A DNA stretch of 4,977 bases from a virus (lineage: Duplodnaviria; Heunggongvirae; Uroviricota; Caudoviricetes): IMG/VR virus record IMGVR_UViG_2698536372_000026. The stretch is one strand, 5' to 3'. Below the pieces are notes generated by a model, which was given only the letters and a program-made list of their open reading frames with translations, did not search any database and was not told the DNA's origin. Below are positions 1 to 4,977 of this stretch, piece by piece. A program made the translations under genes and the position numbers. Positions within the stretch are counted from its first letter, which is position 1; every line of letters starts with the position of its first letter.

Positions 1-1647
1 AGCACGGCCTGCCCGGACTGGGCAGAGCGCCTGAAAAAGGGGCTGTCGATTATTCCGGCTCCGATTTATCCGGAGCAGGCCGCACATGCCCTGGCGATTT
101 TTAAACAACTGCGGATTGTGGATGCACCGGGCAGCCCGACGTTCGGGGAGTCCTGCGCACAGTGGGTGTTTGACCTGGTGGCGGCCCTGTTTGGCTCCTA
201 CGATGCGCAGACCGGTGTACGCCATATCAAGGAAGTTTTTATCCTTATCCCCAAGAAAAACAGCAAGTCCACGCTGGCTGCCGGGATCATGATGACGGCG
301 CTGTTACTGAACTGGCGGCAGGCGGCGGGCTACACCATTCTGGCCCCGACCGTGGAGGTGGCGGCTAACGCCTTCAACCCTGCCAGGGATATGGTACGAC
401 GGGACGATGATCTGGATGACCTCTGTCAGGTGCAGACACATATCCGGACCATCACCCACAGGGTGACGGACACCACCCTTAAGGTGGTGGCTGCCGATCC
501 GAATACGGTATCCGGTATCAAGTCCGTGGGGACGCTGATTGATGAACTGTGGTTATTTGGCAAGCAGTACAAAGCGGAGGACATGCTACGTGAAGCCATA
601 GGCGGCCTTGCCTCCCGCCCGGAAGGGTTTGTGGTGTATACGACCACCCAGTCGAATGAGCCGCCAGCCGGGGTGTTCAGACAGAAACTGCAGTACGCCC
701 GGGATGTCCGTGACGGCAAAATTCATGATCCGCATTTTCTGCCGGTGATATTTGAACACCCTCCTGAAATGGTGGAAAGCGGGGCTAACCTGCTGATGGA
801 AAACCTCGCCATGGTCAATCCGAATCTCGGCTATTCAGTGGATGAGGCCTTTCTGTACCGGGAGTACCGTAAAGCCCGGGAAGCCGGTGAAGAGACATTC
901 CGGGGGTTCATGTCAAAACACGCCAATGTGGAAATTGGTCTTGCCCTGCGCTCTGACCGCTGGGCGGGGGCTGATTTCTGGGAAGAGCAGGGCCGTTGTA
1001 TCAGCCTGGACGATATCCTGCGTCGTGCTGATGTGGTGACGGTGGGGATTGACGGCGGAGGGCTGGATGATCTGCTGGGGATGTATGTGACTGGGCGTGA
1101 CCGGGAGACCCGCGAATGGCTGGGCTGGGGCCATGCCTGGGCGCATGAAACCGCGGTGGTCCGACGGAAGAGCGAGGCGTCCCGGTTTCAGGATCTTGTT
1201 GCCTGTGGAGATATGACCATTGTCCGGCGTGTCGGGGATGACACGGCGGAAGTGGCGGAATATGTGCGTCGCATTCATGAGGCTGAGTTACTGGACCATA
1301 TCGGTATTGACCCGTCAGGGGTGGGGCAGATTCTGGATTCACTGGCGGAAGCCGGGATCCCCGACGGAATTGTGGTGGGGATAAGCCAGGGCTGGAAACT
1401 GGGCGGGGCCATTAAAACCACCGAGCGCAAACTGGCTGAAGGGGTGCTGGTGCATGGTGACCAGCCCCTGATGGCCTGGTGTGTCGGCAATGCCCGGGTG
1501 GAGCCTAAAGGTAACGCCATTCTTATCACCAAACAGGCCAGTGGACGGGGAAAAATTGACCCGCTGATGGCGCTGTTCAATGCGGTCTCCCTGATGTCCC
1601 TTAACCCGGAACCGAAAAAGAAAGAATATGCGGTTTTTTTCATATAA
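1..1647 (+). CDS. Phage terminase large subunit (TerL), 5'-partial; ATPase plus nuclease domains
   Basis: Frame 1 is open from base 1 with no stop, so the gene starts upstream; the GTG at 118 in the ORF track is not the true start. Deviant Walker A 'PKKNSKST' at about 250-273. Walker B-like 'GTLIDE' at about 535-546. C-terminal RNase-H-like nuclease motifs 'VVTVGIDGGG' (about 1033-1062) and 'HIGIDPSG'. Stop TAA at 1645-1647. Family assignment is by motif recognition only. Confidence 0.85.
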   Translation, partial: STACPDWAERLKKGLSIIPAPIYPEQAAHALAIFKQLRIVDAPGSPTFGESCAQWVFDLVAALFGSYDAQTGVRHIKEVFILIPKKNSKSTLAAGIMMTALLLNWRQAAGYTILAPTVEVAANAFNPARDMVRRDDDLDDLCQVQTHIRTITHRVTDTTLKVVAADPNTVSGIKSVGTLIDELWLFGKQYKAEDMLREAIGGLASRPEGFVVYTTTQSNEPPAGVFRQKLQYARDVRDGKIHDPHFLPVIFEHPPEMVESGANLLMENLAMVNPNLGYSVDEAFLYREYRKAREAGEETFRGFMSKHANVEIGLALRSDRWAGADFWEEQGRCISLDDILRRADVVTVGIDGGGLDDLLGMYVTGRDRETREWLGWGHAWAHETAVVRRKSEASRFQDLVACGDMTIVRRVGDDTAEVAEYVRRIHEAELLDHIGIDPSGVGQILDSLAEAGIPDGIVVGISQGWKLGGAIKTTERKLAEGVLVHGDQPLMAWCVGNARVEPKGNAILITKQASGRGKIDPLMALFNAVSLMSLNPEPKKKEYAVFFI

Positions 1648-1672
1648 CCCTGTTCACACTGTAACCATCACG

Positions 1673-1697
1673 AACCGCTCCGGCGGTTTTTTTATTT
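1673..1697 (+). terminator. Candidate intrinsic terminator or attenuator between terL and the protease-capsid gene
   Basis: 6-bp stem aaccgc (1673-1678) / gcggtt (1683-1688) with loop tccg, followed by a T-run (ttttt a tttt, 1689-1698). The stem is short, so this would be weak or leaky at best. Confidence 0.3.
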
Positions 1698-1699
1698 TC

Positions 1700-1705
1700 A
1701 GGAGG
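1700..1705 (+). promoter_or_regulatory. Shine-Dalgarno AGGAGG for the GTG start at 1711
   Basis: AGGAGG lies 5 nt upstream of GTG 1711, which is the first start codon of the long frame-1 ORF. Confidence 0.6.
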
Positions 1706-1710
1706 CTGAT

Positions 1711-3462
1711 GTGACTCTTAAACGGGCCTGTTCCCTGCTGACGGTGAAATCCTTCAGTGAGGATGAACGGGTGATCACCGGGATTGCGTCAACGCCTTCT
1801 CCGGATCGGGATGGTGACATCCTGGAGCCGGAGGGCGCGGAGTTTGGCAGTGCGATCCCGTTTCTCTGGCAGCATGACCATTCCCGCCCGGTGGGGCAGT
1901 GTACGGTACGCCGGGTCAGCGAAGGGCTGGAAATCACGGCAACACTGGTGAAGCCCGTACCGGATATGCCGTCGCAACTGGCTGCCCGGCTGGATGAGGT
2001 CTGGGCGGCCATTAAGACCGGGCTGGTCAGGGGGCTGTCCGTGGGCTTCCGTCCCCATGAATACACCTTTCTGGACGGAGGCGGACTGCATTTTCTGCGC
2101 TGGGAACTGATGGAGGTGTCTGCCGTCACCGTGCCCGCGAATGCGGAATGCACCATCCGGACCATTAAATCTTACGACCGCCCGTTTTCTGCCGCGTCCG
2201 GCAACCGGAAACCGGTGGTGAAAATCGCATCTTCTGCCGGCGCTGCGGCACAGTCAACAACCGTTTTTCATAAGGAAAAGACCATAATGAATATTGGCGA
2301 ACAGATTAAAAGTTTTGAAAACAAGCGTGCAGCGCTGGCAGCCTCCCTTGAGGAGGTCATGACCAAAGCCGCAGAGGAAGGGCGCACGCTGGATGTGGAG
2401 GAGGAAGAGCATTACGACAACACCGCAGCGGAAATCCGTCAGGTGGATGCGCACCTGAAGCGCCTGCGTGAACTGGAAGCCGGTAAGGCCGCCACGGCGC
2501 AGCCGGTGAAACAGGCCGGTAACGGGAATGTGGCCGCGGTGGCTTCTGCGCCGGTGATCCGTGTGGAGCAGAAACTGGATAAGGGGATTGGCTTCGCCCG
2601 CTTTGCCAAATCGCTGGCTGCGGCTAAAGGCGTCCGATCTGAAGCCCTGGAAGTGGCCCGTCGTCAGTATCCGGATGACAGTCGTCTGCACCATGTTCTG
2701 AAATCGGCGGTGGGGGCAGGAACCACCACGGACCCGCAGTGGGCAGGCAGCCTGTCTGAATACCAGGAATATGCGCAGGACTTTATTGATTACCTGCGTC
2801 CGCAGACCATTATCGGGCGATTTGGTCAGGGCGGGATCCCTGCACTTCGTCAGGTGCCGTTCAATATCCGTGTGCACGCCCAGGTGTCCGGCGGTGCTGC
2901 CGGCTGGGTGGGTGAGGGTAAGGCAAAACCCCTGACGAAGTTTGATTTTGAATCCATCACCTTCAGTCATGCGAAAGTGTCGGCCATTGCGGTACTGACG
3001 GAAGAATTGATCCGTTTTTCCAGTCCGGCTGCTGATGCACTGGTCCGTAATGCGCTGGCGGAAGCGGTGGTGGCGCGTCTGGACACAGACTTTGTGGACC
3101 CGAAAAAAGCGGCGGTGGCGGATGTCTCCCCGGCGTCCATCACCCATGATGTGAAGGGCACGGCATCAACCGGTAACCCGGATGCGGATGCCGAGGCCGC
3201 GTTTGGCCAGTTTGTGACGGCAAATCTGCAGCCCACCGGTGCGGTCTGGCTGATGTCCAGCACCAATGCCCTGGCGCTGTCCATGCGTAAAAATGCGCTG
3301 GGGCAGAAGGAATATCCGGACATGACCCTGCTGGGCGGGACCTTCCAGGGGCTGCCGGTGATTGTCTCCCAGTATGTATGCCGCGTCCGGCAACCGGAAA
3401 CCGGTGGTGAAAATCGCATCTTCTGCCGGCGCTTCGGCACAGTCAATAACCTCTTTTCATAA
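1711..3462 (+). CDS. Fusion ORF: HK97-family prohead protease domain, coiled-coil scaffold (delta-like) segment and HK97-fold major capsid protein; C-terminus replaced by out-of-frame read-through at the duplication junction
   Basis: 583-aa ORF. The N-terminal ~155 aa carry prohead-protease motifs: 'WQHDHS' (His55/His57, nt 1873-1881), 'GLSVGF' (Ser110, nt 2038-2040) and 'ELMEVSAVTVPANAE'. Residues ~193-260 are charged and helical (EQIKSFENKRAALAASLEE...EEEEHYD...LKRLRELEAGKA), typical of a scaffold or delta domain. The remainder is a capsid body that is nearly identical to the downstream capsid gene. The last 28 aa (CRVRQPETGGENRIFCRRFGTVNNLFS) come from reading copy 2 of the repeat in the wrong frame. 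Stop TAA at 3460-3462. Confidence 0.85.
   Translation: MTLKRACSLLTVKSFSEDERVITGIASTPSPDRDGDILEPEGAEFGSAIPFLWQHDHSRPVGQCTVRRVSEGLEITATLVKPVPDMPSQLAARLDEVWAAIKTGLVRGLSVGFRPHEYTFLDGGGLHFLRWELMEVSAVTVPANAECTIRTIKSYDRPFSAASGNRKPVVKIASSAGAAAQSTTVFHKEKTIMNIGEQIKSFENKRAALAASLEEVMTKAAEEGRTLDVEEEEHYDNTAAEIRQVDAHLKRLRELEAGKAATAQPVKQAGNGNVAAVASAPVIRVEQKLDKGIGFARFAKSLAAAKGVRSEALEVARRQYPDDSRLHHVLKSAVGAGTTTDPQWAGSLSEYQEYAQDFIDYLRPQTIIGRFGQGGIPALRQVPFNIRVHAQVSGGAAGWVGEGKAKPLTKFDFESITFSHAKVSAIAVLTEELIRFSSPAADALVRNALAEAVVARLDTDFVDPKKAAVADVSPASITHDVKGTASTGNPDADAEAAFGQFVTANLQPTGAVWLMSSTNALALSMRKNALGQKEYPDMTLLGGTFQGLPVIVSQYVCRVRQPETGGENRIFCRRFGTVNNLFS
2190..3378 (+). repeat. Tandem direct repeat, copy 1 (1189 bp): linker, scaffold and capsid coding segment
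   Basis: Aligns base for base with 3379..4567 at a constant offset of 1189, with no indels seen. Hand count gives about 57 mismatches, i.e. about 95% identity. Confidence 0.9.
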
Positions 3463-4567
3463 GGAAAAGTCAGCAATGAATACTGGTGAACAGATTAAAA
3501 GTTTTGAAAACAAGCGTGCGGCGCTGGCAGCCTCCCTTGAGGAGATCATGAACAAAGCCGCAGAGGAAGGCCGCACACTGGATGTGGAAGAGGAAGAGCA
3601 CTACGACAACACCGCAGCGGAAATCCGTCAGGTGGATGCGCACCTGAAGCGTCTGCGTGAACTGGAAACCAGTAAGGCCGCCACGGCACAGCCGGTGAAA
3701 CAGGCCGGTAACGGGAATGTGGCCACGGTGGCTTCAGCGCCGGTGATCCGTGTTGAGCAGAAACTGGATAAGGGGATTGGCTTCGCCCGCTTTGCCAAAT
3801 CGCTGGCTGCGGCTAAAGGCGTCCGATCTGAAGCCCTGGAAGTGGCCCGTCGTCAGTATCCGGATGACAGTCGTCTGCATCATGTCCTGAAATCGGCAGT
3901 GGGCGCGGGGACCACCACGGATCCGCAGTGGGCAGGCAGCCTGTCTGAATATCAGGAATACGCACAGGACTTTATTGATTACCTGCGTCCGCAGACCATT
4001 ATCGGGCGATTTGGTCAGGGCGGGATCCCTGCACTTCGTCAGGTGCCGTTCAATATCCGCGTGCATGCCCAGGTGTCCGGTGGTGCTGCCGGCTGGGTGG
4101 GGGAGGGTAAGGCCAGACCCCTGACGAAGTTTGATTTTGAATCCATCACCTTCAGTCATGCGAAAGTGTCGGCCATTGCGGTACTGACGGAAGAATTGAT
4201 CCGTTTTTCCAGTCCGGCTGCTGATGCACTGGTCCGTAATGCGCTGGCGGAAGCGGTGGTGGCGCGTCTGGATACAGACTTTGTGGACCCGAAAAAAGCC
4301 GCAGTGGCAGATGTCTCCCCGGCGTCCATCACCCATGATGTGAAGGGCACGGCATCAACCGGTAACCCGGATGCGGATGCAGAGGCGGCGTTTGGACAGT
4401 TTGTGGCAGCAAACCTGCAGCCCACCGGTGCGGTCTGGCTGATGTCCAGCACCAATGCCCTGGCACTGTCCATGCGTAAAAATGCGCTGGGTCAGAAGGA
4501 ATACCCGGACATGACCCTGCTGGGTGGCTCCTTCCAGGGGCTGCCGGTGATTGTCTCCCAGTACGTG
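3379..4567 (+). repeat. Tandem direct repeat, copy 2 (1189 bp)
   Basis: Starts immediately after copy 1 with no spacer. Junction sequence is cagtatgta|tgccgcgtcc. The flanks diverge from the copies at 2189 vs 3378 and at 3378 vs 4567. Confidence 0.9.
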
Positions 4568-4678
4568 GGTGACCAGCTGGTGCTGGTGAATGCCCCGGAT
4601 ATTTATCTGGCTGATGACGGCGGTGTGGCGGTGGCGGTGATCACCGGAGTGAACTACGGCAGTGCGTCCGGCGGCTGA
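3476..4678 (+). CDS. Major capsid protein, HK97 fold, with N-terminal coiled-coil scaffold or delta-like segment (complete copy with native C-terminus)
   Basis: ATG at 3476 is preceded by AAGGA (3461-3465) at 10-nt spacing and sits just after the upstream stop at 3462. The frame is open further upstream, so TTG 3362 or ATG 3374 are alternative starts (the ORF track shows 3362..4678). About 97% aa identity to residues 193-555 of the upstream fusion ORF. Native C-terminus ...SQYVGDQLVLVNAPDIYLADDGGVAVAVITGVNYGSASGG. Stop TGA at 4676-4678. Confidence 0.8.
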   Translation: MNTGEQIKSFENKRAALAASLEEIMNKAAEEGRTLDVEEEEHYDNTAAEIRQVDAHLKRLRELETSKAATAQPVKQAGNGNVATVASAPVIRVEQKLDKGIGFARFAKSLAAAKGVRSEALEVARRQYPDDSRLHHVLKSAVGAGTTTDPQWAGSLSEYQEYAQDFIDYLRPQTIIGRFGQGGIPALRQVPFNIRVHAQVSGGAAGWVGEGKARPLTKFDFESITFSHAKVSAIAVLTEELIRFSSPAADALVRNALAEAVVARLDTDFVDPKKAAVADVSPASITHDVKGTASTGNPDADAEAAFGQFVAANLQPTGAVWLMSSTNALALSMRKNALGQKEYPDMTLLGGSFQGLPVIVSQYVGDQLVLVNAPDIYLADDGGVAVAVITGVNYGSASGG

Positions 4679-4684
4679 GTCTGA

Positions 4685-4692
4685 TAAGGAGG
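4685..4692 (+). promoter_or_regulatory. Strong Shine-Dalgarno (TAAGGAGG) downstream of the capsid stop
   Basis: taaggagg at 4685-4692. It is about 30 nt from the ATG at 4723, too far for a direct RBS unless the intervening hairpin folds. Confidence 0.45.
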
Positions 4693-4693
4693 A

Positions 4694-4713
4694 CGGGAGG
4701 CGTGCGCCTCCCG
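4694..4713 (+). promoter_or_regulatory. Perfect 9-bp GC-rich hairpin between the capsid gene and the next ORF
   Basis: cgggaggcg (4694-4702) / cgcctcccg (4705-4713) are exact reverse complements around the loop 'tg'. No U-tract follows (taacaggtt), so this is not a classical intrinsic terminator. Confidence 0.5.
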
Positions 4714-4722
4714 TAACAGGTT

Positions 4723-4944
4723 ATGGCAAAGATCCGATATCTGCAGGGCACGCATGATGCCCGGGCCGGGGATATCCGTGATGTGGCACAGCCGTGTGCG
4801 GAGGTGCTGGTTCGCCTGGGAAAGGCGGAGTACATCACGGTGCGACGTCCGGCAGGTCAGAAAAAGAAACGTGATGCGGAGCATGGCGAATGTGGAACCT
4901 TTTACGGCGAACCCGAAAAAACCAGAAATCAGGACGTGACGTAA
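4723..4944 (+). CDS. Hypothetical small protein (73 aa) downstream of the capsid gene; possibly head-associated
   Basis: ATG 4723 to TAA 4942-4944. Third codon positions are G/C-rich like the neighbouring genes. Position directly after the capsid gene fits a small head-completion or connector-type protein, but I recognise no motif. The overlapping frame-2 ORF 4754..4939 is Arg-rich and less plausible. Confidence 0.45.
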   Translation: MAKIRYLQGTHDARAGDIRDVAQPCAEVLVRLGKAEYITVRRPAGQKKKRDAEHGECGTFYGEPEKTRNQDVT

Positions 4945-4977
4945 GAGAGGCGGGCTGGACCAGCCTGTTTCAGGCGG

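Follow-up and report, generated by a model that had tools for sequence, protein, structure and literature searches.

A head-gene repeat in a draft prophage contig

The window analysed here is a stretch of 4977 bp of viral DNA (IMG/VR record IMGVR_UViG_2698536372_000026), which an exact-protein look-up identified as the entire contig CYEF01000106.1 of the draft assembly GCA_001283205.2. It holds the start of the head module of a lambdoid, Shiga toxin (Stx)-phage-like Escherichia coli prophage, in which the gene starting at 1711 fuses a prohead protease domain to a major capsid domain. A large part of this protease-capsid gene appears twice in tandem. It is very probable that the apparent duplication is an assembly artefact, that is, two reconstructions of one locus, each mixing reads of two related prophages from one E. 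coli strain, joined across a one-base gap. The duplication is almost certainly not a real feature, and the divergence between its copies is almost certainly the ordinary divergence between two natural alleles, hereafter E and X.

A direct, gap-free repeat with a 1189-nt period and no indels occupies 2190-3378 and 3379-4567. Because this period is of the form 3n+1, the two copies lie in different reading frames. The first open reading frame (ORF; 1711-3462, 583 aa) loses the capsid frame at the junction and runs into a 27-residue out-of-frame tail that stops at 3462, and the second (3476-4678, 400 aa) starts at an internal ATG at 3476. The copies differ at 58 nucleotide positions, with 42, 10 and 6 of these at codon positions 3, 1 and 2, respectively; one apparently silent difference, A versus G at 3378, is no base call, since the public record has N there, which leaves 57 real differences. 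On these 57, the excess at codon position 3 is strong (binomial p = 3e-9). Nei-Gojobori counting gives 42 synonymous and 16 non-synonymous changes (p = 2e-13 for the synonymous excess) and an overall ratio of non-synonymous to synonymous divergence (dN/dS) of 0.118. Split by segment, dN/dS is 0.03 for the capsid shell, 0.17 for the scaffold-like part and about 2.7 for the 32 codons that precede the internal ATG. Fourteen amino-acid differences result, at repeat codons 18, 22, 24, 30, 31, 34, 55, 57, 96, 97, 115, 245, 342 and 383; eleven fall in the first 116 codons and only three in the shell (K/R, T/A and T/S), and the non-synonymous changes cluster significantly towards the N-terminus (Fisher p = 1.6e-4). 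A preliminary description of the window, aligned by hand, had counted about 14 amino-acid against about 43 silent differences, with eleven changes near the N-terminus and the same three in the shell, and had set a mostly synonymous capsid body against a non-synonymous linker and scaffold segment. All of this is reproduced. The overall ratio is not near 1 and the substitutions are not spread evenly across codon positions, the two outcomes which that description had associated with relaxed selection or sequencing error.

The public record reads 'agtatgtntgccgcg' at the junction. This N, at 3378, is the only one in 4977 bases and falls exactly on the block boundary. The window has an A at this position, its sole difference from the retrieved record (L008), and the natural alleles all have a G at the equivalent position. 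Ambiguous bases seem to have been recoded as A before the first reading, which would hide scaffold gaps. With an N for the junction base of the deposited contig, no sequenced DNA joins the two blocks; the copies were probably never joined in DNA at all, and the assumption of the preliminary description that they had been is not sustained.

Searches for a contiguous junction elsewhere covered 5,426 complete E. coli genomes without finding one, and a degenerate junction pattern gave 0 matches in IMG/VR or in the Joint Genome Institute (JGI) metagenome contigs. The best whole-window matches in complete genomes span 3788 nt, i.e., 4977 minus 1189, which corresponds to one copy; a single copy is likewise held by the best matches among complete genomes and phage records together, with record spans of 3788 or 3947 nt. 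The products of the two ORFs, CTY34906.1 (583 aa) and CTY34935.1 (400 aa), occur on CYEF01000106.1 only among about 15 billion proteins. The one two-piece junction match among the complete genomes, in NCCP 13918, was rejected as an unrelated internal deletion in a gene annotated as a pseudogene. In that genome (NZ_CM167686.1; L002 4531-5567), a deletion of about 890 nt within the protease-capsid gene joins repeat position ~144 to ~1033 and leaves a frameshifted pseudogene.

Two natural alleles behind the two copies

On both sides of the repeat (1-2189 and 4568-4977), the sequence matches at 100% identity a prophage of strains EH2252 (L001) and 06_3235 (L007) that has the gene in single copy. 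The copies themselves are another matter: no exact match to either was found in the 5,426 complete genomes, the best being 99.1% for copy 1 and 99.5% for copy 2. The mismatches between copy 2 and its best relative are precisely the six sites 2871-2927, at which copy 2 has the base of the other allele; for copy 1 the converse holds. Copy 1 and copy 2 are ruled out as parental alleles by the missing exact match and by this reciprocal patch, and it is because the residual mismatches fall there that the copies can be decomposed into allele E, defined as the left part of copy 1 followed by the right part of copy 2, and allele X, the left part of copy 2 followed by the right part of copy 1.

The decomposition leaves no remainder. 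The single-copy segment of the E prophage in EH2252 and 06_3235 shows 24 differences to copy 1 and 34 to copy 2, which sum to 58; it agrees with copy 1 at each of the first 34 variable sites (2245-2775) and with copy 2 at each of the 24 that follow (2871-3378), and has 0 private differences. Allele E is 100% identical to the single-copy gene in one prophage of 06_3235, EH2252 and other genomes. Allele X is identical at 1188 of 1188 positions to a second prophage of 06_3235 (L006), located at 3.59 Mb, and 99.7-99.9% identical to prophages in ten further genomes. All 57 real differences are thus already present between E and X, and neither copy holds a mutation of its own. Both copies change allele within the same 95-nt stretch in which E and X are identical (2776-2870 in copy 1, 3965-4059 in copy 2): the last E-specific site of copy 1 is 2775 and the last X-specific site of copy 2 is 3964. 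This comparison indicates that neither copy is a natural allele and that each is an E/X chimera. The features of the window, all genes being on the + strand, are as follows.

1-1647, + strand: terminase large subunit (Pfam TerL_ATPase and TerL_nuclease), with the first few codons missing at the contig edge; allele E, left flank.
1711-2189, + strand: prohead protease domain (Peptidase_S78, PF04586, residues 48-152) of the fused protease-scaffold-capsid gene, ahead of the repeat; allele E.
2190-2870, + strand: left part of copy 1, allele E, comprising the linker, the internal ATG at 2287, the scaffold-like segment and the start of the shell; 0 mismatches to E and 34 to X across 2245-2775.
2871-3377, + strand: right part of copy 1, allele X of the second prophage; 0 mismatches to X (L006) and 23 to E.
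3378, no strand: junction, a scaffold gap placeholder; N in CYEF01000106.1, A in the window.
3379-4059, + strand: left part of copy 2, allele X, comprising the linker, the internal ATG at 3476 and the scaffold-like segment; 0 mismatches to X and 34 to E across 3434-3964.
4060-4678, + strand: right part of copy 2 and 3' end of the gene, allele E, with the site of a 159-nt in-frame deletion near 4633; 0 mismatches to E.
4723-4944, + strand: 73-aa hypothetical protein that precedes and overlaps the start of the portal gene; annotated as WP_001063099.1 in EH2252 and in the 06_3235 E prophage, with a 100% identical sequence; allele E, right flank.

The terminase segment (1-1647) and the protease segment (1711-2189) are each 100% identical to the E prophages of EH2252 and 06_3235. 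The contig start falls within a stretch of at least 180 nt in which E and X are the same.

The preliminary description had proposed that purifying selection acted on both copies before they were joined, so that neither is a decaying duplicate. The selective history is borne out, since all 57 differences are natural E/X differences and both alleles occur at 100% identity in 06_3235. It had also taken the copies to be alleles from two related phage lineages, and had suggested looking for the closest relatives of each among prophages. The two lineages exist, and relatives of at least 99% identity are found in prophages; each copy, in contrast, combines E and X and corresponds to neither natural allele, and neither has an exact match.

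Origin of the apparent duplication

The comparison with EH2252 and 06_3235 indicates that the true locus is a single-copy gene of 1779 nt, as in these strains. The window would be a short scaffold of a fragmented short-read draft assembly, whose strain would carry at least two paralogous lambdoid Stx-phage-like prophages whose fused prohead protease-scaffold-major capsid alleles, E and X, differ by about 5%. In a short-read assembly graph, the 95-nt stretch common to both would form a repeat node with two ways in and two ways out, through which the alleles could not be phased. Resolved wrongly, such a node would yield two reciprocal chimeras, E-left/X-right and X-left/E-right. The first piece (1-3377) would then consist of the E flank, the E left part and the X right part, and the second (3379-4977) of the X left part, the E right part and the E flank. 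Since both have E flanks, read pairs would set the order of the two pieces. Over the 1188 nt that both cover, the pieces differ at 57 sites; because of these differences they could not be merged, and would therefore have been abutted with a single N. The result would mimic a 1189-nt tandem duplication with 5% divergence. SSPACE writes a single 'n' where a predicted overlap between neighbouring pieces fails to merge. Alternatively, the E contigs would have been broken at the shared node and a gap filler would have extended both edges with reads of the X paralogue. GapFiller extends both edges of a gap by k-mers and closes it only if the extensions merge, and the gaps that stay open lie mainly in repeats (PMC3446322).

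The protease-capsid gene is prone to such difficulties. Clustered at 90% identity, the two ORFs of the window (1711-3462 and 3476-4678) belong to a group of 9,916 members, of which many are 'partial' capsid proteins from contigs 1-10 kb long; this multi-copy gene therefore routinely fragments short-read assemblies, and it is a habitual contig breakpoint in short-read assemblies of Shiga-toxin-producing E. coli (STEC). Given this breakpoint, other draft genomes may contain scaffold artefacts of the same kind.

The arrangement has close counterparts among the false 'heterotype' duplications that adjoin assembly gaps (PMC9516828, which cites Kelley & Salzberg 2010), for which a gap between the members of a duplicated pair and allele-specific k-mers serve as criteria (Ko et al. 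2022, Genome Biol 23:205, PMC9516828). In those cases, as in the window, two diverged versions of one locus stand side by side on a scaffold with a gap between them; the versions carry allele-specific variants, and the duplication is absent from higher-quality assemblies and gives rise to false extra or truncated gene models. The window differs in that a haploid bacterium supplied both versions as paralogous alleles of its prophages, in place of the two haplotypes of a diploid, and in that each duplicated block is a reciprocal chimera of both alleles. Measured against what is expected of a false duplication, an N separates the blocks on one scaffold (3378), the blocks derive from pre-existing alleles with no block-private mutation (57 of 57 differences separate E from X), and the finished assemblies of close relatives, with 100% identical flanks, hold a single copy. 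A genuine tandem would be expected to show a novel junction that is contiguously sequenced and that recurs in independent assemblies or samples; here, the junction base is N, and the junction recurs neither in the complete E. coli genomes nor in IMG/VR or the JGI metagenome contigs.

Several points weigh against an assembly origin. The ends of the two pieces (3377, and 3379, which equals gene position 2190) fit no simple E/X boundary of a de Bruijn graph with odd k. A k-mer boundary of this type was tried and gave no clean fit: piece 2 has 55 nt ahead of its first X-specific base, for which k would have to be 56, an even number, and piece 1 ends 2 nt past its last X-specific base. Two longer stretches in which E and X are identical (156 and 125 nt) were crossed with no switch of allele. 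In principle, one N could also mark an ambiguous base call and not a gap. Finally, the software steps, whether mis-resolution of a repeat node followed by a scaffolder join at an overlap that was not found, or gap filling with paralogue reads, are inferred.

The strongest competitor to an artefact is a real duplication between alleles, in which a 1189-nt X piece with an X-end-to-X-start junction recombined into the E gene and the N is an ambiguous base call. The donor could have been a fragment circularised and integrated by one crossover (Campbell-type), or the event could have been a gene conversion from an X-X tandem. A circle integrated by a single crossover would be expected to leave just this order (E-left, X-right, junction, X-left, E-right), with the two switches falling in one and the same interval; E and X do reside together in related genomes, and the rearranged gene of NCCP 13918 shows that a different internal rearrangement of the protease-capsid gene exists. 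Nevertheless, this explanation is very unlikely. It requires the only N of the contig to land on the junction by chance and a junction with no microhomology, and we know of no mechanism or source for such a circular X fragment. The junction is absent from the 5,426 complete genomes, from IMG/VR and from the metagenome contigs, the phage records are single-copy and the ORF products are found on one contig only. The contig is itself a short, repeat-bounded piece of a draft assembly, and reciprocal mis-phasing at a shared repeat node yields the same pattern more simply. Were the junction real after all, the protease-capsid fusion would be divided between two products, a truncated fusion and a capsid protein that stands alone, and the locus would offer a snapshot of gene-fragment exchange between resident prophages.

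Less probable still is the model favoured by the preliminary description, in which copy 1 and copy 2 are intact alleles of different phage lineages joined end to start by one illegitimate recombination. The mostly synonymous divergence (dN/dS 0.12) agrees with it, as does the presence, in different prophages of the same genomes (e.g., 2013C-4538), of relatives at least 99% identical to each copy. However, the chimeric composition of the copies contradicts it: neither copy is found exactly anywhere searched, while the reciprocal combinations E and X are both found at 100%; moreover, the model predicts flanks from different lineages, and both flanks are E, with an N at the junction. An in-situ tandem duplication with later divergence, whether decaying or with both copies kept under selection, has only the tandem layout to recommend it and is the least credible of all. 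It is excluded because 57 of 57 differences pre-exist between E and X with no private substitution in either copy; in addition, the copies diverge by 5% between flanks that match a single-copy relative at 100% identity, and the 3n+1 period truncates copy 1 by frameshift, yet no relaxed constraint is seen. The converse derivation, of single-copy E from a real tandem by deletion, was also ruled out, since an independent prophage carries X at 100% identity and the junction base is an N.

An assembly artefact of this kind carries a general caution. A scaffolder that joins mis-phased reconstructions of a multi-copy prophage gene can imitate a 'duplicated gene under purifying selection', and the sole visible clue, a single N, vanishes once the N is recoded as a base. 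The artefact placed two non-existent proteins in public databases, CTY34906.1, with its out-of-frame tail, and CTY34935.1.

The underlying gene and its prophages

The real gene beneath the artefact is an HK97-type prohead protease-major capsid protein fusion, which is established by both its domains and its head-module context. The fused gene from 1711 encodes a Peptidase_S78 prohead protease domain followed by an HK97-type Phage_capsid domain. Both domains exceed the Pfam gathering scores in both alleles: PF04586 reaches 34.9 bits in E and 32.7 bits in X (cut-off 21), and PF05065 reaches 43.4 bits in E and 54.7 bits in X (cut-off 24.2). The annotated gene order in L001 and L003-L007 is small terminase subunit (TerS), large terminase subunit (TerL), capsid, small ORF, portal, connector and head closure.

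The same organisation is found in long-tailed, Stx-converting lambdoid phages such as Enterobacteria phage 2851, YYZ-2008 and Stx2a_WGPS6. Their 'major head protein/prohead protease' likewise combines Peptidase_S78 and then Phage_capsid, and lies in the same order of TerS, TerL, protease-capsid gene, small ORF and portal; the whole window is 96-98% identical to these records at the nucleotide level. Unlike these phages, the window has the gene artificially split into ORFs of 583 and 400 aa. The module is widespread, being present in more than 1,250 of the 5,426 complete E. coli genomes, in up to 7 places per genome, and in 93 phage records that include phage 2851, YYZ-2008 and many Stx1a/Stx2 phages. 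The isolate is probably related to O26-type STEC or enteropathogenic (EPEC) strains.

What remains biologically is usual for lambdoid head genes: co-resident Stx-phage-like prophages with capsid-fusion alleles about 5% apart. The substitution statistics remain a valid comparison of the natural alleles E and X in co-resident prophages, between which synonymous divergence (dS) is about 0.15. Read in this way, the segment ratios point to strong purifying selection on the HK97-fold shell (dN/dS 0.03) and to a moderate level of it on the protease and scaffold-like parts (0.17). The 32-codon linker that separates the protease domain from the internal start codon (2191-2286/3380-3475), with 7 non-synonymous changes versus 1 synonymous (Fisher p = 3e-4 versus the rest), appears essentially unconstrained. 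The pattern suggests that the linker resembles an intergenic spacer and that the capsid part may be translated separately from the internal start. Upstream of this start (2287/3476), an AAGGA motif is conserved together with the ATG itself, and 4 of the 6 bases immediately before the ATG differ.

The E allele of the window is a 592-aa form that, unlike the 645-aa phage form, is without 53 residues near the C-terminus. This shorter form, shared by the window, EH2252, 06_3235 and the other top matches with a 3788-nt span, has 159 nt (53 aa) missing compared with the 645-aa form carried by X, L003-L005 and phage 2851; the segment missing from E corresponds to L006 5255-5413. The deletion point (~4616-4645, after ~4633) is bracketed by short direct repeats resembling GTGGCGGTG. 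In E, the Pfam Phage_capsid match ends at profile position 228 of 280, versus 279 of 280 in X. Given this shorter match, the capsid protein of the E prophage may be defective.

Over about 9 kb of the head module, L003, L005, L006 and L007 form a two-haplotype mosaic: at the sites that distinguish L003-like from L005-like sequence, E and X are complementary, with joint switches near L006 positions 1000, 2500, 4750 and 6500. The two alleles of 06_3235 sit at 1.26 Mb (E, + strand) and 3.59 Mb (X, - strand). The mosaic hints at exchange between resident prophages. A derivation of E and X from one reciprocal inter-prophage crossover, which would imply a chromosomal inversion, was considered and found insufficiently supported, as the 9-kb comparison shows several switches. 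Downstream of the region covered by the window, the portal coding sequence is flagged as 'frameshifted' (pseudogene) in 6 of the 7 related loci fetched (L002-L007) and is intact only in EH2252 (L001 9701-12280).

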